Positions 1-6,856 of a stretch of 6,856 nucleotides of DNA are shown in pieces. The DNA is from a virus (Duplodnaviria > Heunggongvirae > Uroviricota > Caudoviricetes): positions 1-6,856 of the IMG/VR virus record IMGVR_UViG_2778261568_000010; one strand, given 5' to 3'. A model generated the notes under the pieces. That model saw nothing but the letters and a program-made list of their open reading frames with translations. It was not told where the DNA came from and ran no database searches. The stretch's first letter is position 1, and each line of letters starts with the position of its first letter. Position numbers and translations under genes: made by a program.

Positions 1-153
1 ATGCGCAATGAAATAGCCATCAATCACCAGATGCTTCGTGCAGCACAGAACAAAGCAGTAATAGCCAGATTTATTGGTGATTCCAAAATGTGGCTTGAAG
101 CAAATAAAGCGATGAAATCAGCTATCAACCTTCCGTGGTATCGCAGGAAATGA
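1..153 (+). CDS. kil: Kil-like small protein (host cell-division inhibitor family), 50 codons as read; may start at internal ATG 31 or extend upstream of the window
   Basis: Translation MRNEIAINHQMLRAAQNKAVIARFIGDSKMWLEANKAMKSAINLPWYRRK contains IA-FIGD-KM--EA--A-K, which matches the lambda Kil N-terminal region as I recall it (TIATFIGDEKMFREAVDAYKK). Sits immediately upstream of the erf module, as kil does in P22. Window begins at the ATG, so the 5' end is unverifiable. Confidence 0.5.
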   Translation: MRNEIAINHQMLRAAQNKAVIARFIGDSKMWLEANKAMKSAINLPWYRRK

Positions 154-308
154 GTTTTACAGATAACTGGTCAGACGAAGAATTCATTCGTCAGATGAAA
201 GAATTAATCGGTAACGAAGGAGATATTCATGTCACTTGCAACCACAGTGAAGGAGAGCAAGTTACAGAGACGCATGTACACGCAGAAAGCTCTCTGGTAT
301 CGCCATAA
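150..308 (+). CDS. Small hypothetical protein (52 aa); positional analogue of P22 Arf (accessory recombination function) between kil and erf
   Basis: ATG at 150 overlaps the upstream TGA (ATGA), suggesting translational coupling. Translation MSFTDNWSDEEFIRQMKELIGNEGDIHVTCNHSEGEQVTETHVHAESSLVSP. Assignment is by position and size only; no sequence-level recognition. Confidence 0.35.
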   Translation: MSFTDNWSDEEFIRQMKELIGNEGDIHVTCNHSEGEQVTETHVHAESSLVSP

Positions 309-409
309 TGGCGACCGCGAAGGAATGCGGGTATGCCTTAATTTGTCCCGAGTCGAAGTATTAAATCAGCGTTATTTCCTTGGGCCATGTCCATTCTGAG
401 AACAAACAT

Positions 410-1015
410 ATGAGCAAAGAATTTTATGCAAGACTGGCAGCTATTCAGGAGAATCTGAACGCGCCAAAGAATCAGTACAACTCATTCGGTAAATATAAAT
501 ACAGAAGCTGCGAAGACATTCTTGAAGGCGTTAAGCCGTTACTGAATGGTCTGTTTTTATCAATCAGCGATGAAGTTGTGTTGATTGGTGATCGGTATTA
601 CGTGAAAGCCACGGCAACTATCACCGATGGCGAAAACAGTCATACGGCAACCGCACTAGCACGAGAGGAAGAAAGCAAGAAAGGAATGGATTCTGCACAA
701 GTTACGGGAGCTACAAGCTCTTATGCACGCAAGTATTGCCTCAATGGTTTATTCGGCATTGATGATGCGAAAGATGCAGATACCGACGAGCATAAACATC
801 AGCAGAACGCAGCAGCAAAGCAATCAAAACCATCACCTACACCTGGACAGGTTCTAAAAGCATTCACTGACGCAGCAATGCAGAAAAACACCGTGGAAGA
901 GCTTAAACAGGCGTTCGCCAAAGCGTGGAAGATGCTCGAAGGCACACCGGAGCAGCACAAAGCGCAGGACGTTTACAACATCAGACGAGACGAATTAGAA
1001 GGAGCGGCTGCTTAA
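410..1015 (+). CDS. erf: Erf-family single-strand annealing recombinase (essential recombination function)
   Basis: ORF-track frame 380..1015; I place the start at ATG 410 (MSKEFYARL...), since the track start at 380 is a TTG. The N-terminal half (NAPKNQYNSFGKYKYRSCEDILEGVKPLL...DRYYVKATATITDGENSH...QVTGATSSYARKYCLNGLFGIDDAKDAD) matches the conserved Erf domain as recalled from P22 Erf. Confidence 0.8.
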   Translation: MSKEFYARLAAIQENLNAPKNQYNSFGKYKYRSCEDILEGVKPLLNGLFLSISDEVVLIGDRYYVKATATITDGENSHTATALAREEESKKGMDSAQVTGATSSYARKYCLNGLFGIDDAKDADTDEHKHQQNAAAKQSKPSPTPGQVLKAFTDAAMQKNTVEELKQAFAKAWKMLEGTPEQHKAQDVYNIRRDELEGAAA

Positions 1016-1398
1016 TGGCACATTCGATTACTGTAAGACTAAACAAGCCCGCAAGAGAGTTTCAGGCCGGGGAAAATATCGGATTCAACATCCGTGCTGG
1101 CGTTCAGTATTACGATCGCCAGACAAAAAAGAAAGAATGGACAAACTACAGCGCCGTTGTATTTGCCAAGCCGGGAGCGCAAGCGGATTACTATCGTAGC
1201 GTTCTGGTTGAAGGAGGCATTGTAGAAATTACCGGAGAAAACATCAGAGTTGATGTTTATCAGGGGCAAAATGGTCAATCAATCACTCTTGAATTACTGA
1301 ATGCAAAGATTGGATTTGCAACTTCAGGAAACAGCCAACAGCAACAAAGTAGCAATCATCAAAATCATCCTGAATACGACGATTCAATTCCCTTCTAG
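1015..1398 (+). CDS. Phage SSB-like OB-fold single-stranded DNA-binding protein (127 aa) with host-SSB-like C-terminal tip
   Basis: ATG at 1015 overlaps the erf stop (TAATG). The pattern EW-NYSAVVFAKPGAQADYYRSVLVEGGIVEITGE-IRVDVYQGQNGQSITLEL parallels the E. coli SSB OB-fold core. A Gln/Ser-rich linker leads to a terminal EYDDSIPF, resembling the canonical SSB tip DDDIPF. Track ORF 925..1398 is the same frame with a spurious upstream extension. Confidence 0.6.
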   Translation: MAHSITVRLNKPAREFQAGENIGFNIRAGVQYYDRQTKKKEWTNYSAVVFAKPGAQADYYRSVLVEGGIVEITGENIRVDVYQGQNGQSITLELLNAKIGFATSGNSQQQQSSNHQNHPEYDDSIPF

Positions 1399-1421
1399 AT
1401 TAGCAAAATAAGGATTCCATT

Positions 1422-1718
1422 ATGCCAGCGCCTTTGTATGGTGCGGATGACCCGCGCCGCTGTTCCGGCAATTCCGTATCGGAGGTGCTGGATAAATTCA
1501 GAAAAAACTACGACCTGATAATGTCGCTACCGCAGGAAACGAAAGAGGAAAAGGAATTTCGTCATTGTATATGGCTTGCAGAGAAAGAAGAACGCGAGCG
1601 AATTTACCAGACATCAATCCGACCATTCCGCAAAGCCACATATACCCACTTCCCTGAATATATCGACCCGCGCCTGCGTAATTACCGCTCACGCTATGGC
1701 GCTATCAGTAATGACTGA
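1422..1718 (+). CDS. Hypothetical protein (98 aa), first gene after the erf/ssb module
   Basis: ATG at 1422 preceded by AAGGA at 1410-1414 (spacing 7). Charged composition (ETKEEKEFRHCIWLAEKEERERIYQ). No family recognised. Confidence 0.5.
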   Translation: MPAPLYGADDPRRCSGNSVSEVLDKFRKNYDLIMSLPQETKEEKEFRHCIWLAEKEERERIYQTSIRPFRKATYTHFPEYIDPRLRNYRSRYGAISND

Positions 1719-1728
1719 GGAATTTACC

Positions 1729-2019
1729 ATGAAAACAATGAAGCTAAACATCGTCCTCGGAAAATACGTTATTACCGGAACCAAACACGACCTGATTCTT
1801 AGTGAAAGAGGAATTATCAAAGAAGGCGAGAATGCAGGGAAAGAAACACTAAGCCGTATCGGTTATTACAGCAAGTTTGAGCATCTGGTTAAAGAATTAT
1901 GCAACCGTGAAATCCTGTTATCTCAGGCGCAGACGCTACAGGATATTCAGCAACATATCGAGAATTTAGGTGTGTCACTTAGCATGGCTATTGACCAGTT
2001 CGTGGAGAGTAAATCATGA
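1729..2019 (+). CDS. Hypothetical protein (96 aa)
   Basis: ATG at 1729 with GAGG at 1717-1720 (spacing 8); begins [18 protein letters not shown]. The track ORF 1576..2019 is the same frame with an N-terminal extension that would overlap the preceding gene. Confidence 0.5.
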
Positions 2020-2183
2020 GAGGACTTGCATACAATCCCGGCATTCTTCCAGCAGAAATGATTATTCGCCAACGCGTAAAGCCAATGCCATCGAGAGAGG
2101 AATTGCTTAAGAGAAATTCTTTTCCTTCAGTGAATCAAAACAAATATCTGAATGCGATGTGGCGCAAAGGAGGCAAGCAGTGA
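2016..2183 (+). CDS. Hypothetical small protein (55 aa), not in the ORF track
   Basis: ATG 2016-2018 overlaps the upstream stop TGA 2017-2019 (ATGA). Hand-translated: [55 protein letters not shown], stop TGA 2181-2183. Fills an otherwise gene-free gap in a densely packed operon. Confidence 0.35.
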
Positions 2184-2479
2184 GTGTATATCTTATTGAT
2201 AAACGTCGACGTGGGCAACAAATACCACCTGTAGGAATTCCGAATCACACATGGTTTTGCGTACTTGATATCGATGGTATGGATGCGTTGGTTGACACTA
2301 GTCATTACTGCGATACCGCAACAGCTACTACGGCGAAAGCAAAGAAAATGGCTGCTCTGATAGAAAACTGGACTCCACCTGATGGTTGGTGCAATGGGAA
2401 TGATCGAGATTGGCATGAAAAAATGAAGGGCTATATCTGCGATTTCTTACGTAAATGCAACGGCTTCAGGGTGATGTGA
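2180..2479 (+). CDS. Hypothetical protein (99 aa from GTG 2180; 106 aa if GTG 2159)
   Basis: GTG 2180 overlaps the upstream stop (GTGA) and follows AAAGGAGG at 2166-2173 (spacing 6). Several Cys residues ([24 protein letters not shown]). No family recognised. Confidence 0.45.
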
Positions 2480-2480
2480 C

Positions 2481-3017
2481 ATGAGCAAGATTGACTATCA
2501 GGCACTGCGTGAAAAGGCAGAGAAAGCAACGTGTGGGGTGTGTTCGCTCGAATATGGAGAGAGCCGATTTGATTGTGATGATGCGCTAATTCATCGTGAC
2601 GTTGTTGGATATCTTCCCATTTGCAGAATTGAAGGAGCGCATCCTGAAAGCGGTTTCGATGAAGATTTCCAAATTGAACAGCAGGCCAATGCTGAATTCA
2701 TCGCCGCAGCCAATCCGGCTACCGTGCTGGCACTACTGGATGAACGGGAAAGAAACCAGCAATACATCAAACGCCGCGACCAGGAGAACGAGGATATTGC
2801 GCTAACGGTAGGGAAGCTGCGTGTTGAGCTGGAAGCAGCAAAAAAGCGCATAGCAGAACTGAAAGCACGGGAGGTTGTACTGCCGCGTGCGCACGATGTT
2901 CACCCATTAGGGCCGCAGTCGGCGAAAATTTTTTGTGAGTTTCACCGGAGTATCGTGAACAGATGCGCCGATGAGATTCGCAAGGTTGGCGTCAAAGTCA
3001 GCATCAAGGGGAATTAG
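2481..3017 (+). CDS. Ead/Ea22-like phage protein (178 aa)
   Basis: Central segment ANAEFIAAANPATVLALLDERE is the signature I associate with the Ead/Ea22-like family of lambdoid early-left accessory proteins. It is followed by a predicted coiled-coil region (LTVGKLRVELEAAKKRIAELKARE). The N-terminus carries Cys at CGVC and FDCDD. Confidence 0.6.
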   Translation: MSKIDYQALREKAEKATCGVCSLEYGESRFDCDDALIHRDVVGYLPICRIEGAHPESGFDEDFQIEQQANAEFIAAANPATVLALLDERERNQQYIKRRDQENEDIALTVGKLRVELEAAKKRIAELKAREVVLPRAHDVHPLGPQSAKIFCEFHRSIVNRCADEIRKVGVKVSIKGN

Positions 3018-3021
3018 GGAT

Positions 3022-3528
3022 ATGGCTGAACTAACCAAAGAATGGCTGAAGCAAACTATCGCTGAATACGAAGCCAATCGTGATGAATTACCGTTTGGAC
3101 TGGATACCAACAGTGCCATTGGGCTTCAGGCGTTCAAGTTGGCGCTGGCATCGCTGGAAGCAGAACCGGTGGCGTGGAAGGTAACATTCACGCAAATTGA
3201 TCGTGAATATAACACGTTCACTGGTATGTATTCTGACAAAGCAGAAGTCGAACGGTGGGTGCGTCTGCATAAAGCATGTAATTTTCGGGCAGATATAACA
3301 CCGCTTTATACCGCCAAGCCAGTGCTGGTAACTCCGGATGGTTGGATAAGCTGTAGTGAGCGAATGCCGGATAAGTTAATTCCGGTAATGGTCATGTATG
3401 AAGACGGTGAGATGTGGTCTGCAATGTGGAATGGCAATCGCTGGGATGATGGCACCGAATATCCGGATCCGCACTCAGTTACGCACTGGCGTGAAATGCC
3501 AGCAGCACCGCAGCAGGAGGTGAAGTGA
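3022..3528 (+). CDS. Phage protein with C-terminal DUF551-type domain (168 aa from ATG 3022; 185 aa if ATG 2971)
   Basis: C-terminal DGWISCSERMPDKLIPVMVMYEDGEMWSAMWNGNRWDDGTEYPDPHSVTHWREMPAAP fits the DUF551 pattern (WIS..E..P...V.V.....W..G..W.....VTHW..MP) common in enterobacterial prophage early regions. The 2971 start would overlap the previous gene by 47 nt; 3022 follows AGGGGA at 3006-3011. Confidence 0.6.
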   Translation: MAELTKEWLKQTIAEYEANRDELPFGLDTNSAIGLQAFKLALASLEAEPVAWKVTFTQIDREYNTFTGMYSDKAEVERWVRLHKACNFRADITPLYTAKPVLVTPDGWISCSERMPDKLIPVMVMYEDGEMWSAMWNGNRWDDGTEYPDPHSVTHWREMPAAPQQEVK

Positions 3529-3806
3529 TGGACTCCTTCGCGAAATATACGATTATTGACTGGATAGCATTCCTTCAGGTTTTGCTCATCTGGTTTTATA
3601 TGGCTTACAGGAGTGGGCAGTGGATTGTCAGTGTAGCCTGTAGCAAGGGATGGCGTTGGTGGAACCGAAAGAATAAAAAAGCACTAGCCTTGGATTCGTT
3701 TTACGAAGCATTCAATCTTAACATCCTTCAGCCTGGTTCTGTCGTTGTAGTCACCACTCAAAGCGGCATGACCATTCAGATTCATAAACCAAAAGAGGAA
3801 AAATGA
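3528..3806 (+). CDS. Small predicted membrane protein (92 aa; 93 aa if GTG 3525)
   Basis: AGGAGG at 3514-3519 precedes the start. The N-terminal hydrophobic stretch YTIIDWIAFLQVLLIWFYMAY is long enough for one transmembrane helix and is followed by a basic patch (WRWWNRKNKK). The start overlaps the upstream stop (TGATG). Confidence 0.45.
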   Translation: MDSFAKYTIIDWIAFLQVLLIWFYMAYRSGQWIVSVACSKGWRWWNRKNKKALALDSFYEAFNLNILQPGSVVVVTTQSGMTIQIHKPKEEK

Positions 3807-3892
3807 TGTGGCCTATATGTGTTAATTGCGGACGGATGTGCCTATCTGGATGGTGCCGAAAGTGCGACAAATGCACGAAGCAAAGACAATAA
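3803..3892 (+). CDS. Candidate Cys-rich micro-protein (29 aa), not in the ORF track
   Basis: ATGATG start overlaps the upstream stop, with AGAGGA at 3793-3798. Hand-translated: MMWPICVNCGRMCLSGWCRKCDKCTKQRQ, six Cys in 29 residues (C-x2-C-x3-C-x4-C-x2-C-x2-C). Confidence 0.25.
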   Translation: MMWPICVNCGRMCLSGWCRKCDKCTKQRQ

Positions 3893-3926
3893 CAATCCTC
3901 GCACTCGCGGGGATTTCTTTTATCTG

Positions 3927-3950
3927 AACTCGCTACGGCGAGTTTTGTTT
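3927..3950 (+). terminator. Candidate intrinsic terminator hairpin (stem AACTCGC / GCGAGTT, loop TACG, then TTGTTTT)
   Basis: Read directly from sequence at 3927-3950; it lies in the only sizeable intergenic gap of the operon (3893..3964). Confidence 0.4.
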
Positions 3951-3964
3951 TATGGAGATGATAA

Positions 3965-4132
3965 ATGCACTTCCGAGTCACAGGTGAATGGAATGGAGAA
4001 CCATTCAACAGAGTTATCGAAGCCGAGGACATCAACGACTGCTATAACCACTGGATGATATGGGCGCAGATAGCACATGCAGAAGTAACCAATATTCGAA
4101 TTGAAGAACTGAAAGAACACAAAACCGCCTGA
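3965..4132 (+). CDS. Hypothetical 55-aa protein immediately upstream of xis
   Basis: ATG 3965 with GGAG at 3954-3957 (spacing 7). Hand-translated: MHFRVTGEWNGEPFNRVIEAEDINDCYNHWMIWAQIAHAEVTNIRIEELKEHKTA. Its size and distance from xis match the unnamed 55-codon ORF that I recall upstream of xis in the lambda reference annotation (coordinates from memory). The stop TGA 4130-4132 lies in the loop of the next hairpin. Confidence 0.45.
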   Translation: MHFRVTGEWNGEPFNRVIEAEDINDCYNHWMIWAQIAHAEVTNIRIEELKEHKTA

Positions 4133-4145
4133 TGGCGGTTTTTTC
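4121..4145 (+). terminator. Intrinsic terminator-like hairpin (stem AAAACCGCC / GGCGGTTTT, loop TGAT, then T-run)
   Basis: Near-perfect 9-bp stem with a GC core followed by TTTTTT, read directly at 4121-4145. Confidence 0.55.
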
Positions 4146-4159
4146 TTGCGTGTAATTGC
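4146..4159 (+). promoter_or_regulatory. cII-binding TTGC-N6-TTGC element of the int promoter pI
   Basis: TTGC at 4146-4149, a 6-nt spacer, then TTGC at 4156-4159, 13 nt before the xis ATG. In lambda, cII activates pI at exactly such a repeat in the -35 region, and the transcript starts inside xis so that Int is made without Xis. Confidence 0.6.
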
Positions 4160-4171
4160 GGAGACTTTGCG

Positions 4172-4390
4172 ATGTACTTGACACTTCAGGAGTGGAACGC
4201 ACGCCAGCGACGCCCAAGAAGCCTTGAAACAGTTCGTCGATGGGTACGCGAGTGCAGGATATTCCCTCCTCCGGTTAAGGATGGAAGAGAGTATCTGTTC
4301 CACGAATCAGCGGTAAAAATTGACTTAAATCGACCAGTAACAGGTAGCCTTTTGAAGAGGATCAGAAATGGGAAGAAGGCGAAGTCATGA
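4172..4390 (+). CDS. xis: Excisionase Xis (lambda type)
   Basis: 72-aa translation MYLTLQEWNARQRRPRSLETVRRWVRECRIFPPPVKDGREYLFHESAVKIDLNRPVTGSLLKRIRNGKKAKS matches lambda Xis as I recall it over its full length; the 3' end overlaps int by 23 nt as in lambda. Confidence 0.93.
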   Translation: MYLTLQEWNARQRRPRSLETVRRWVRECRIFPPPVKDGREYLFHESAVKIDLNRPVTGSLLKRIRNGKKAKS

Positions 4391-5438
4391 GCGCCGGGAT
4401 TTACCCCCTAACCTTTATATAAGAAACAATGGATATTACTGCTACAGGGACCCAAGGACGGGTAAAGAGTTTGGATTAGGCCGAGACAGGCGAATCGCAA
4501 TCACTGAAGCTATACAGGCCAACATTGAGTTATTTTCAGGACACAAACACAAGCCTCTGACAGCGAGAATCAACAGTGATAATTCCGTTACGTTACATTC
4601 ATGGCTTGATCGCTACGAAAAAATCCTGGCCAGCAGAGGAATCAAGCAGAAGACACTCATAAATTACATGAGCAAAATTAAAGCAATAAGGAGGGGGCTG
4701 CCTGATGCTTCACTTGAAGACATCACCACAAAAGAAATTGCGGCAATGCTCAATGGATACATAGACGAGGGCAAGGCGGCATCAGCCAAGTTAATCAGAT
4801 CAACACTGAGCGATGCATTCCGAGAGGCTATAGCTGAAGGCCATATAACAACAAACCCGGTCGCAGCCACTCGCGCAGCAAAATCAGAGGTAAGGAGATC
4901 AAGACTTACGGCTGACGAATACCTGAAAATTTATCAAGCAGCAGAATCATCACCATGTTGGCTTAGACTTGCAATGGAACTGGCTGTTGTTACCGGGCAG
5001 CGAGTTGGTGATTTATGCGAAATGAAGTGGTCTGATATCGTAGATGGATATCTTTATGTCGAGCAAAGCAAAACAGGCGTAAAAATTGCCATCCCAACAA
5101 CATTGCATGTTGATGCTCTCGGGATATCAATGAAGGAAACACTTGATAAATGCAAAGAGATTCTTGGCGGAGAAACCATAATTGCATCTACTCGTCGTGA
5201 ACCGCTTTCATCCGGCACAGTATCAAGGTATTTTATGCGCGCACGAAAAGCATCAGGTCTTTCCTTCGAAGGGGATCCGCCTACCTTTCACGAGTTGCGC
5301 AGTTTGTCTGCAAGACTCTATGAGAAGCAGATAAGCGATAAGTTTGCTCAACATCTTCTCGGGCATAAGTCGGACACCATGGCATCACAGTATCGTGATG
5401 ACAGAGGCAGGGAGTGGGACAAAATTGAAATCAAATAA
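4368..5438 (+). CDS. int: Tyrosine site-specific integrase Int (lambda type, 356 aa)
   Basis: N-terminal arm-binding domain MGRRRSHERRDLPPNLYIRNNGYYCYRDPRTGKEF and a C-terminal catalytic domain with the R...K...HxxR...H...Y signature (TGQRVGDL, SKTGVKIAIP, HELRSLSARLY, LLGHKSDTMASQY) match lambda Int essentially residue for residue from memory. A few substitutions relative to the reference are possible but I cannot verify them. Confidence 0.97.
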   Translation: MGRRRSHERRDLPPNLYIRNNGYYCYRDPRTGKEFGLGRDRRIAITEAIQANIELFSGHKHKPLTARINSDNSVTLHSWLDRYEKILASRGIKQKTLINYMSKIKAIRRGLPDASLEDITTKEIAAMLNGYIDEGKAASAKLIRSTLSDAFREAIAEGHITTNPVAATRAAKSEVRRSRLTADEYLKIYQAAESSPCWLRLAMELAVVTGQRVGDLCEMKWSDIVDGYLYVEQSKTGVKIAIPTTLHVDALGISMKETLDKCKEILGGETIIASTRREPLSSGTVSRYFMRARKASGLSFEGDPPTFHELRSLSARLYEKQISDKFAQHLLGHKSDTMASQYRDDRGREWDKIEIK

Positions 5439-5511
5439 TGATTTTATTTTGACTGATAGTGACCTGTTCGTTGCAACAAATTGATAAGCAATGCTTTTTT
5501 ATAATGCCAAC
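5439..5511 (+). other. attL P' arm (phage side): arm-type Int sites and IHF H' site
   Basis: The reverse complement of 5439..5511 reads GTTGGCATTATAAAAAAGCATTGCTTATCAATTTGTTGCAACGAACAGGTCACTATCAGTCAAAATAAAATCA, i.e. the lambda attP P' arm as recalled. AGGTCACTAT-type arm sites lie at about 5441-5468 and an IHF-like TATCAATTTGTTG at about 5474-5486 (reverse strand). Confidence 0.85.
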
Positions 5512-5526
5512 TTAGTATAAAAAAGC
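5512..5526. repeat. att core (15-bp common core O) at the prophage/host junction
   Basis: TTAGTATAAAAAAGC is the exact reverse complement of the lambda/E. coli core GCTTTTTTATACTAA. The flanking host-side sequence (reverse complement CCGTTGAAGCCTGC) matches the E. coli attB B arm as recalled. Confidence 0.9.
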
Positions 5527-5572
5527 AGGCTTCAACGGATTCATTTTTCTATTTCATAGCCCGGAGCAACCT

Positions 5573-6856
5573 GTGAACACATTTTCAGTTTCCCGTCTGG
5601 CGCTGGCATTGGCTTTTGGCGTGACGCTGACCGCCTGTAGCTCAACACCGCCCGATCAACGTCCTTCTGATCAAACCGCGCCTGGTACCTCTTCTCGCCC
5701 GATTCTGTCGGCAAAAGAAGCGCAGAATTTCGATGCTCAACACTATTTTGCATCCCTGACACCAGGTGCGGCAGCGTGGAATCCTTCCCCGATTACCCTG
5801 CCTGCGCAACCTGACTTTGTTGTCGGCCCGGCGGGTACTCAAGGTGTAACGCATACCACGATTCAGGCGGCGGTAGATGCGGCAATTATCAAGCGCACCA
5901 ACAAGCGCCAGTATATTGCCGTGATGCCTGGTGAGTATCAGGGAACGGTGTATGTCCCTGCCGCTCCGGGTGGAATTACTCTGTACGGTACAGGTGAAAA
6001 ACCGATTGATGTGAAGATTGGGCTTTCCCTTGATGGGGGCATGAGCCCTGCCGACTGGCGTCACGACGTCAACCCGCGCGGCAAATATATGCCAGGTAAA
6101 CCAGCGTGGTATATGTACGATAGCTGCCAGAGCAAACGCAGCGACAGTATCGGTGTTCTCTGCTCTGCGGTCTTCTGGTCACAAAACAATGGCCTGCAAC
6201 TGCAAAATCTGACCATCGAAAACACGCTGGGCGATAGCGTAGATGCGGGTAACCATCCGGCGGTGGCACTGCGTACTGATGGTGACAAAGTGCAGATCAA
6301 TAACGTCAACATTCTCGGTCGTCAGAATACCTTCTTTGTCACCAACAGTGGTGTGCAAAACCGTCTGGAAACCAACCGTCAGCCGCGTACTCTGGTGACC
6401 AACAGTTACATTGAAGGGGATGTGGATATCGTTTCTGGTCGCGGCGCAGTGGTGTTCGATAACACCGAATTCCGCGTGGTGAACTCACGTACTCAGCAAG
6501 AAGCGTATGTGTTTGCACCGGCTACGCTGTCTAACATCTATTACGGTTTCCTCGCCGTAAACAGCCGTTTCAATGCTTCCGGTGATGGCGTGGCGCAACT
6601 GGGTCGCTCGCTGGATGTTGATGCCAATACCAACGGTCAGGTGGTGATCCGTGATAGCGCCATCAACGAAGGTTTTAACACAGCCAAACCCTGGGCTGAT
6701 GCGGTGATCTCTAATCGTCCGTTTGCGGGTAACACCGGCAGCGTTGATGATAACGACGAAATACAACGCAATCTGAATGACACTAACTACAACCGCATGT
6801 GGGAATACAATAACCGCGGCGTGGGTAGCAAAGTGGTTGCAGAGGCGAAGAAGTAA
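5573..6856 (+). CDS. ybhC: Host outer-membrane lipoprotein YbhC (pectinesterase-like, carbohydrate esterase family 8 fold; reported thioesterase activity), 427 aa
   Basis: GTG start with GGAG at 5563-5566. The N-terminus MNTFSVSRLALALAFGVTLTAC is a lipoprotein signal peptide with lipobox LTAC. The full-length translation matches E. coli YbhC as I recall it. Codon usage and GC content look host-like, unlike the AT-richer phage DNA to the left. Confidence 0.93.
   Translation: MNTFSVSRLALALAFGVTLTACSSTPPDQRPSDQTAPGTSSRPILSAKEAQNFDAQHYFASLTPGAAAWNPSPITLPAQPDFVVGPAGTQGVTHTTIQAAVDAAIIKRTNKRQYIAVMPGEYQGTVYVPAAPGGITLYGTGEKPIDVKIGLSLDGGMSPADWRHDVNPRGKYMPGKPAWYMYDSCQSKRSDSIGVLCSAVFWSQNNGLQLQNLTIENTLGDSVDAGNHPAVALRTDGDKVQINNVNILGRQNTFFVTNSGVQNRLETNRQPRTLVTNSYIEGDVDIVSGRGAVVFDNTEFRVVNSRTQQEAYVFAPATLSNIYYGFLAVNSRFNASGDGVAQLGRSLDVDANTNGQVVIRDSAINEGFNTAKPWADAVISNRPFAGNTGSVDDNDEIQRNLNDTNYNRMWEYNNRGVGSKVVAEAKK

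Follow-up and report, generated by a model that had tools for sequence, protein, structure and literature searches.

Does the 29-codon open reading frame (ORF) that follows a small membrane-protein gene near the integration genes of a tailed phage encode a protein, and of what kind would that protein be? The locus lies in a window of 6,856 nucleotides, which is the whole stretch of DNA analysed here and corresponds to positions 1 to 6,856 of the IMG/VR record IMGVR_UViG_2778261568_000010 (Caudoviricetes). It comes from a lambdoid prophage, of which it is the left end, and the micro-ORF directly follows a gene of the DUF4752 family. The reading that we favour, with some but not strong confidence and on comparative evidence, is that positions 3806-3892 are a translated phage gene for an autonomous 28-residue zinc-ribbon microprotein with an accessory early function.

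The full frame (3803-3892) encodes MMWPICVNCGRMCLSGWCRKCDKCTKQRQ, with cysteines at residues 6, 9, 13, 18, 21 and 24. A preliminary description of the locus had singled out this ORF, its ATGATG overlap with the stop codon of the DUF4752 gene and the preceding AGAGGA. All three are present in the sequence, the DUF4752 TGA (3804-3806) lying inside ATGATG. The same description placed the start at the first in-frame ATG (3803), which gives a 29-residue form. However, the methionine conserved in the family, directly before a tryptophan, is that of the second ATG (3806), 6 nucleotides (nt) from AGAGGA, and in one relative an ATT replaces the first ATG. Judging from the family alignment, the product is probably 28 residues long and starts at 3806. 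It is basic, with six lysines or arginines and one acidic residue. The elements of the micro-ORF are the following:

3794-3799, plus strand: putative Shine-Dalgarno sequence AGAGGA of the micro-ORF, within the final DUF4752 codons

3803/3806-3892, plus strand: the micro-ORF, read from its first or second ATG

3806-3892, plus strand: predicted microprotein gene, 28 codons and a TAA, encoding MWPICVNCGRMCLSGWCRKCDKCTKQRQ, called from its homologues, the codon bias of its variation and the annotation HK106_030 (see below)

The bare existence of such a frame is uninformative, because 17 ORFs of at least 20 residues overlap positions 3300-4100; the micro-ORF rises above chance because it is conserved elsewhere. 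A tblastn search with the 29-residue peptide against 50,697 phage records identified the family in 29 of them. It returned near-identical copies in lambdoid and P22-like phages (HK106, mEp213, mEp043, Kapi1, IME10, Dewey, Bas106, Gally, JEP4, H19J and two Stx1a phages), and matches at E = 1e-5 in Escherichia phages C1 and S192 (Deseoctovirus), Salmonella phages KFS-SE2 and KFSST1 (Skatevirus), ST1UNAM, ZCEC08, CF-SP1 and Tr1, the last being a 154-kb Citrobacter phage of the Stephanstirmvirinae. In C1, S192, the Skatevirus phages, ST1UNAM, ZCEC08, CF-SP1 and Tr1, every homologue lies in an unannotated gap. The peptides of these divergent phages read MWPICKHCGRMCL(N/T)(S/N)WCRKCD(K/R)xSK or MWPICKHCGRMCWSVWCTKCDKRG. 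The architecture is constant: an ORF of 24-35 codons that begins with Met-Trp-Pro-Ile-Cys and whose ATG overlaps or abuts the upstream stop codon. Despite unrelated upstream genes, a purine-rich, GGAGG-like Shine-Dalgarno sequence precedes the conserved ATG by 4-7 nt in the homologues examined.

Searches of other collections enlarged this set. A scan of IMG/VR with the family alignment recovered 80 loci, which together with the GenBank phages represent about 30 distinct nucleotide versions; the 80 IMG/VR loci and a Kluyvera genome contribute about 25 further distinct versions. The Kluyvera prophage was the single locus found when one genome per bacterial species was scanned, and a 12-residue fragment in a metagenome-assembled genome of Hyphomicrobiales that came up in the same scan was treated as a chance match. 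Within the plasmid collection, the micro-ORF was present only in a 1.4-Mb replicon that is chromosome-like in its behaviour.

The variation among these sequences has the signature of a coding region. Thirteen positions are invariant in 17 distinct peptides, namely M2, W3, P4, I5, C6, C9, G10, R11, C13, W17, C18, C21 and D22 in the 29-residue numbering. At the nucleotide level the subfamilies share 65-76% identity, while the peptide core is conserved. In the 22 core codons common to them, 8, 8 and 19 sites vary at the first, second and third codon positions. The ratio of non-synonymous to synonymous variation (pN/pS), summed over all pairs for these codons, is 0.135 in the micro-ORF frame versus 2.3 and 1.3 in the shifted frames; synonymous sites are saturated, so these ratios are indicative only, and the sequence sets are small and phylogenetically non-independent. 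All of the roughly 30 nucleotide versions are open from the methionine of MWPIC to a stop codon 24-35 codons further on. A second scan used a degenerate DNA pattern that covers residues 8-21 and leaves the N-terminus, the start codon and the length outside. In every one of the 76 viral contigs that it recovered, the matching segment belongs to an ORF 24-39 codons long that starts with MWPIC or MMWPIC (MMWLIC in one), and in none does it lie inside a longer protein. Since the pattern omits the N-terminus, the start and the length, this result is a largely independent confirmation. The preliminary description had proposed to look for loss or disruption of the micro-ORF in relatives; instead, it is intact in divergent relatives and varies with a synonymous bias. 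On this pattern of sequence variation, the micro-ORF is a genuine protein-coding gene under purifying selection.

The micro-ORF has rarely been annotated. The micro-ORF occurs in 182 of 5,426 complete Escherichia coli genomes, and among the E. coli matches listed, 12 of 12 have no feature called there by the Prokaryotic Genome Annotation Pipeline (PGAP) except the DUF4752 gene, whose end overlaps the micro-ORF. The expectation that standard annotation would miss the ORF is borne out by these omissions, but not by phage HK106, where HK106_030 (YP_007151700.1, UniProt K7P872, 'hypothetical protein') annotates exactly this ORF. This is its sole correct annotation: the 29-residue sequence, read from the first ATG, is identical to that of the window and has the same place after a DUF4752 homologue. 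It differs from the present account in being an unnamed call in one genome, without a described family, conservation or function, and the other records omit the ORF or call another frame. In mEp213, for example, a 79-residue product of another frame (mEp213_028; L001, 1807-2046, equivalent to window 3819-4058) is called over the micro-ORF and passes through both of the terminator hairpins described below into orf55. Bas106_0019 (L002, 1847-1948) and Dewey_CDS0021 (L171, 424-525) are calls of 33 residues in another frame, at window positions 3826-3927. We examined these frames, as well as a minus-strand ORF of 94 residues, and none is conserved beyond the near-identical lambdoid copies; the competing annotated frames have stops in divergent homologues or pN/pS above 1. 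From this comparison, mEp213_028, Bas106_0019 and Dewey_CDS0021 are probably mis-annotations.

Database searches with so short a peptide also returned several misleading names. In third-party metagenome annotations the name DUF1244 is given to a K27 variant and to the identical peptide; we rejected the name, as Pfam scans of the window peptide and of 17 family members gave no DUF1244 match at E <= 10. The 29-residue peptide is filed in the 90%-identity cluster of P0001 and P0002, whose representative is an unrelated TolC-like protein of 480 residues. The TolC-like identity suggested by this exact cluster look-up is a clustering artefact, and the microprotein is consequently hidden from searches of cluster representatives. 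Another candidate, P0054, was the one match in a search of representatives with the 31-residue window translation and was discarded as an artefact of composition and repeats, since it contains four tandem copies of SGFCQECDRCTTLQRQ and its score is summed over them. A query of three concatenated family members against the protein database found only P0007 (see below), the database being evidently near-empty of proteins this short. The microprotein matched no significant family in Pfam, PHROGs, NCBIfam or PADLOC, and a literature search for its peptide strings found no paper. The family MWPIC-x2-CGR-x-C-x3-WC-x-KCD(K/R), of 24-35 residues and also written MWPICKHCGRxCxxxWCxKCDK, is previously uncatalogued.

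What would the peptide look like? Within the family C-x2-C-G and W-C-x2-C are invariant and are joined by an 8-residue connector, the pattern of a two-knuckle ribbon, and AlphaFold2 run on the single sequence gave a model with beta-bridges at a mean predicted local distance difference test score (pLDDT) of 83. Modelled in this way, the microprotein is most likely a minimal two-knuckle zinc ribbon. Numbering from the conserved methionine, the knuckles C5-x2-C8-G and W16-C17-x2-C20-D would bind one Zn2+, and the 8-residue hairpin between them would carry the invariant C12 and the conserved R10. The preliminary description had read all six cysteines as a zinc knuckle or ribbon layout. The two CxxC knuckles stand, but only five of the cysteines are invariant in the family, and the sixth (C24 in the 29-residue numbering) is restricted to the lambdoid version. 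The top match in a profile search of the PDB, a non-significant one (E = 0.45; ICKHCGRMCLSGWCRKC versus VCDKCGLMGYSGWCTTC), was the zinc ribbon at the C-terminus of yeast RPC2, the second-largest subunit of RNA polymerase III, and Foldseek returned four matches, all zinc modules and none significant (E >= 6.6), among them human Pol III (7ast_M) at E = 8.7. Zinc modules were the only similarities that either search gave. The Cys4 ribbon of RPC2 (5fj8_B / 7ast_M) has the same CxxC-x8-CxxC spacing, and there too a glycine follows the first knuckle and SGW precedes the second. It differs in lying within a eukaryotic subunit of 1,149 residues, whereas the microprotein is free-standing, has 24-29 residues and carries an extra invariant cysteine. 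We read the resemblance as a hint at the class of fold and not as a sign of homology.

Several observations weigh against the reading of 3806-3892 as an accessory zinc-ribbon gene. The fold was assigned from the spacing of the cysteines and an AlphaFold2 model of the single sequence, and no zinc-ribbon match is significant, the best Pfam matches (E = 0.25-0.82) falling below the cut-offs and the PDB and Foldseek values being those given above. The fifth invariant cysteine, C12 of the connecting hairpin, is not accounted for by a Cys4 site. The 64 near-identical lambdoid copies differ by about 8 distinct non-synonymous changes (among them the singletons C21Y, C21R, G10R and P4L) and 2 synonymous ones, an excess that looks like relaxed recent selection or decay in resident prophages. 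Furthermore, related loci were found in part by peptide patterns, which inflates the conservation seen there; the tblastn and DNA-pattern scans mitigate this effect and do not remove it. The family is also rare in both collections (182/5,426 complete E. coli genomes, 29/50,697 phage records), and the action on a host target that we propose below is something that we purely infer.

An alternative is that the microprotein is real but something other than a zinc ribbon. With its five cysteines it might coordinate another metal or an iron-sulfur cluster, perhaps in a dimer, or the peptide might be redox-sensitive or disulfide-bonded. Such chemistry would give a use to the invariant C12, which is surplus to a Cys4 zinc site; the weak, non-significant Pfam matches include a 4Fe-4S motif, and no zinc-ribbon model matches significantly. 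However, CxxCG...WCxxC with an 8-residue connector is the classic ribbon pattern and aligns residue for residue, if not significantly, with the RPC2 ribbon, while the spacing, as read from the sequence, is unlike the CxxCxxCxxxC motifs of ferredoxin type. We regard a non-zinc peptide as unlikely.

The second question is whether the micro-ORF works together with the gene before it, with which it was initially described. Alignment of the window with ST104, PA28 and GER2 shows homology through the DUF4752 gene as far as about position 3800 and again from ATAACAATCC (3889, including the stop codon) onward; the sequences at the breakpoint are ...AAAGAGGAA|AAATGATG in the window versus ...AAGGAGGAA|GGTCGTGGCTAA in ST104, PA28 and GER2. 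The break and the resumption indicate that the exchanged unit is the micro-ORF itself, and in ST104, CUS-3 and O157 prophages its slot is filled by a gene with an ASCH domain. Across phages the micro-ORF has at least five different upstream neighbours. In a second group of prophages (L074, L076-L080, L082, L085, L087 and L089, at about 1286-1504), it overlaps the stop codon of a TraR/DksA-type C4 zinc-finger gene, which in L074 and L079 matches PF01258 (DksA/TraR zinc finger), and the micro-ORF precedes a NinX-like gene, its final codons (CGGGGGTGA) acting as the ribosome-binding site of that gene. In the Deseoctovirus and Skatevirus phages, an unrelated protein of about 190 residues is encoded upstream and an operon-end terminator follows. 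The upstream protein has 109 residues in Tr1 and 213 residues in L081, where a MazG-like gene lies downstream. The DUF4752 gene, for its part, is usually found without the micro-ORF and followed by ASCH, Ant or other genes. In these alignments the micro-ORF is a self-contained mosaic cassette, brought next to DUF4752 by recombination and not part of an obligate pair.

Three side observations concern the cassette and its edges. The recurrent adjacency of two small zinc-type proteins, the TraR/DksA-type protein and the microprotein, may be meaningful. The 3' end of the micro-ORF in the IMG/VR locus L020 is chimeric, as ...KQRQSHIPTSAINR runs into the 3' sequence of an ST104-type ASCH gene with a crossover at AAGACAAT, and the micro-ORF of another IMG/VR locus, L075, has an unrelated tail after WC. 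These chimeric C-termini are recombination scars at the edge of the cassette.

The view that the DUF4752 protein and the microprotein form a two-gene functional unit, such as a membrane effector with a zinc-binding regulator or antidote in a superinfection-exclusion or toxin pair, has to be weighed against this mosaicism. The two genes overlap at ATGATG and are translationally coupled in the window, an identical DUF4752 3' end precedes the micro-ORF in 64 of the 64 lambdoid-type loci recovered, and P0007, from one Logan assembly, is a DUF4752-microprotein fusion of 121 residues (probably through a frameshift). Yet the micro-ORF is also found after at least four other, unrelated upstream genes with no DUF4752 present, and DUF4752 occurs far more often without the micro-ORF. 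The mosaic breakpoint falls exactly between the two genes, and in E. coli CP031215 the DUF4752 gene (L172, 428-706) is a pseudogene with an internal stop whereas the adjacent micro-ORF is 100% identical. Neither protein matched a PADLOC model. Such a functional unit is very unlikely on these counts.

The DUF4752 part of the locus is ordinary, being a catalogued family. The ORF reads from an ATG at 3528 to 3806, giving 92 residues (93 if the GTG at 3525 is used). Its features are:

3528-3806, plus strand: DUF4752-family gene, 92 residues

3549-3608, plus strand: codons of the predicted transmembrane helix (residues 8-27, including the invariant Asp11-Trp12), from hydropathy, AlphaFold2 and the family alignment

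3648-3668, plus strand: codons of the GWRWWNR motif (residues 41-47), a basic and aromatic patch invariant in 13 members

Membership is clear from Pfam PF15944 (E = 2.8e-35; 120.6 bits against a gathering cut-off of 27), with residues 8-91 aligned to positions 2-84 of the 84-position model, that is, over its full length, and from phrog_667 (E = 1.8e-37). A protein search found 47 relatives; those with a named source come from Escherichia and Enterobacter, and all that carry a name are called 'DUF4752 family protein'. The preliminary description had predicted one strongly hydrophobic helix followed by a patch rich in Trp, Arg and Lys, and both were found. Hydropathy peaks at residues 8-26 (mean 1.78, Kyte-Doolittle, 19-residue window), and AlphaFold2 with the family alignment places helices at 9-45 and 50-61 and a beta-hairpin at 72-86, with a modest overall pLDDT of 68 that rises to about 88 over residues 11-30. 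The record of Kapi1 notes a DeepTMHMM helix at 9-27 in its DUF4752 homologue. The transmembrane segment is conserved among homologues down to 47% identity: in 13 aligned members, D11-W12 and I21-W22-F23-x-M25 are invariant in the hydrophobic segment, as are G41-W-R-W-W-N-R47 and K51 directly past the helix, the patch being the invariant core of the family. The C-terminal flank of the helix has five basic residues and the N-terminal flank a net charge of about zero; the protein is a small single-pass membrane protein with a small C-terminal domain, and by the positive-inside rule its orientation is probably N-out/C-in. The protein shares the D-W, IWF-M and GWRWWNR..K signatures with homologues of E. 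coli, Enterobacter and Salmonella phages (ST104 orf7) and shows no difference from them, being an ordinary member of a catalogued family without an assigned function. Superinfection exclusion, toxicity and membrane stress, which the preliminary description had put forward, are candidate roles. A literature search found DUF4752 in no paper, and PADLOC-DB held no family at E <= 1 for the DUF4752 protein, the microprotein or six neighbouring proteins. Two side observations belong here: the predicted membrane helix holds an invariant Asp (Asp11-Trp12 codons, 3558-3563), and a recurrent frameshift variant of 73 residues, with about 20 member sequences (P0023, P0028 and P0031), retains the helix and GWRWWNRK but has its C-terminal domain replaced.

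On its other side, the micro-ORF abuts a conserved junction that contains two hairpins found in a terminator scan:

3894-3925, plus strand: terminator-like hairpin 1 (9-bp stem, 3894-3915) and T-tract, starting 2 nt past the micro-ORF stop

3926-3955, plus strand: terminator-like hairpin 2 (3926-3945) and T-tract, in a junction common to many lambdoid phages

The folding of this tandem region is unusually stable (z = -4.66). The junction at 3889-3960, made of ATAACAATCC and the hairpins, is almost base for base the intergenic region between ea8.5 and orf55 of lambda (L088, about 1587-1660, minus strand), and on its own this segment has matches in about 2,500 of the 5,426 complete E. coli genomes. 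Different cassettes, such as the micro-ORF, the ASCH gene and ea8.5, seem to be joined at it, as at a conserved boundary or linker sequence. In some relatives, a gene of about 100 residues with CxxC motifs lies between the tandem hairpins and orf55 (Kapi1_003, L003, 1946-2257; L172, 864-1163). We considered Kapi1_003 as a possible Ea8.5 homologue and dropped it, having detected no similarity to lambda Ea8.5.

This arrangement resembles that of trpL/leuL-type leader peptides, in which a short ORF rich in one amino acid is directly followed by intrinsic terminators, as in the window. The micro-ORF could accordingly be a regulatory leader whose translation, perhaps sensitive to cysteine, controls the two terminators and read-through into orf55-xis-int, the peptide itself being functionless. 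Its stop codon (3890-3892) lies 2 nt before the strong tandem terminators, so close that a ribosome terminating there would occupy the left arm of hairpin 1, cysteine codons are abundant, and a terminator also lies within about 10 nt in the Deseoctovirus and Skatevirus phages. However, the micro-ORF is conserved across the whole peptide: the non-cysteine residues W, P, I, G, R, W and D are invariant while their codons vary synonymously, which a leader would not need. Many homologues have no terminator downstream, as in the TraR-NinX context and in Tr1, where the next gene begins 4-8 nt downstream and takes the last codons of the micro-ORF as its Shine-Dalgarno sequence. The fold of 3790-3965 offers no antiterminator alternative to the hairpins, and Rfam gave no leader match on the strand of the micro-ORF; its two sub-threshold matches (E of about 0.9), one of them a Leu_leader on the opposite strand over the hairpins, were judged to be chance. 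Finally, this terminator junction is also found after ea8.5 in lambda and after the ASCH gene in ST104; the terminators therefore belong to the junction, not to the micro-ORF. A leader function is highly unlikely. That the micro-ORF is an unexpressed chance frame, with its nucleotides conserved as a junction for recombination or some other element of DNA or RNA, would fit its 87-90 nt at a mosaic junction, the different frames taken by other annotators over the same DNA and the lambdoid singletons, among which non-synonymous changes exceed synonymous ones, but is extremely unlikely given that the peptide core outlasts nucleotide divergence with changes mostly at third codon positions, that the competing frames have stops or pN/pS above 1, and that start codon, Shine-Dalgarno sequence and short length are kept across unrelated genomic contexts.

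If the micro-ORF is a gene for an autonomous peptide, its surroundings may indicate when it acts. The remaining genes of the window were assigned by comparison with Pfam and PHROG:

380-1015, plus strand: ERF recombinase gene, by family assignment

1422-1718, plus strand: gene of P22-type anti-RecBCD protein Abc2

1729-2019, plus strand: DUF5405 gene

2159-2479, plus strand: DUF7739 gene

2481-3017, plus strand: Ead/Ea22-like gene

ending at 3528, plus strand: DUF551 gene, whose TGA overlaps the ATG of the DUF4752 gene (GTGATG)

3965-4132, plus strand: homologue of lambda orf55 (lambdap35), phrog_676, E = 4.6e-38, the final exo-xis gene before xis and int

4172-4390, plus strand: Xis gene

4368-5438, plus strand: integrase gene with the lambda arm-binding domain

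5573 onward, plus strand: host pectinesterase-like gene

The orf55 homologue is annotated in mEp213 as 'similar to lambdap35', and orf55 is the last gene of the exo-xis region (PMC8614690). The micro-ORF and the DUF4752 gene thus sit within the early leftward operon's exo-xis region, a tract of small non-essential genes that affect lysogenisation and induction (PMC8614690, PMC3824215). Apart from these genes, an ORF of 127 residues (1015-1398) lies 3' of the ERF gene; it has no Pfam match at E <= 0.001, its C-terminus (...DDSIPF) recalls the acidic tail of single-strand-binding proteins, and it may be a divergent candidate for such a protein.

In this setting, ribosomes that terminate on the DUF4752 stop codon or reinitiate after it would read the start of the micro-ORF, through the TGATG overlap and the AGAGGA 6 nt upstream, and the microprotein would be made early from the exo-xis region, between the DUF4752 gene and orf55-xis-int. 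Since the micro-ORF moves independently between phage genomes, it would act autonomously and not as a partner of DUF4752. The R-x-C...W hairpin may be presented as an interaction surface, by which the peptide would act in trans on a host macromolecule conserved in Escherichia, Salmonella, Citrobacter and Kluyvera. Its accessory early function would be comparable to that of those other genes of the exo-xis region that adjust host physiology or the choice between lysis and lysogeny.

The closest parallels are the lambda exo-xis proteins Ea8.5, Orf73 (TraR-like) and Orf55, whose genes share the neighbourhood and the expression class of the micro-ORF, being part of the early leftward operon and lying between the genes for recombination and xis; ea8.5 and the micro-ORF end at one and the same junction. 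Ea8.5 is a zinc-finger/homeodomain protein, and Orf73 is a TraR-like C4 zinc-finger protein. The microprotein differs from them in being three times smaller, in occurring also in non-lambdoid phages and in lacking similarity to Ea8.5 (no BLASTP alignment at E <= 100) or to the DksA/TraR zinc-finger model (no match to PF01258). Exo-xis accessory proteins are small, non-essential and partly zinc-binding, and they modulate phage development (PMC8614690, PMC9239242). TraR homologues, including lambda Orf73, bind RNA polymerase (PMC9239242), and orf55 has been modelled as a binder of RNA polymerase (PMC8614690). By association with the TraR/DksA-like proteins and orf55, the transcription machinery is a candidate target, a doubtful one as this analogy goes.

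The microprotein is of a familiar general kind, the small cysteine-rich accessory protein of phages, and belongs to a family that is largely unannotated. Annotation pipelines systematically miss phage genes of fewer than about 30 codons, and the comparative evidence for this one is as strong as 24-28 codons can be expected to give. The defined MWPIC motif is a usable signature for annotators, and a peptide of 24 residues can be chemically synthesised, which makes its metal binding, structure and partners directly testable. That lambdoid prophages and unrelated phages carry the same peptide suggests that its target is shared across the Enterobacteriaceae. On a more speculative view, to which we give little credence at present, peptides of 24-28 residues such as these would be among the smallest autonomous zinc-ribbon effectors, a mobile early cassette of temperate and non-lambdoid enterobacterial phages that would bind a conserved host machine and tune host takeover or the lysis-lysogeny decision; transcription is the candidate here, suggested by the exo-xis neighbours and by the likeness to a zinc ribbon of RNA polymerase. 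For lambdoid phages, the micro-ORF adds a new component to the exo-xis region, which affects lysogenisation and induction, including those of Shiga-toxin phages, and whose gene content is still being worked out.

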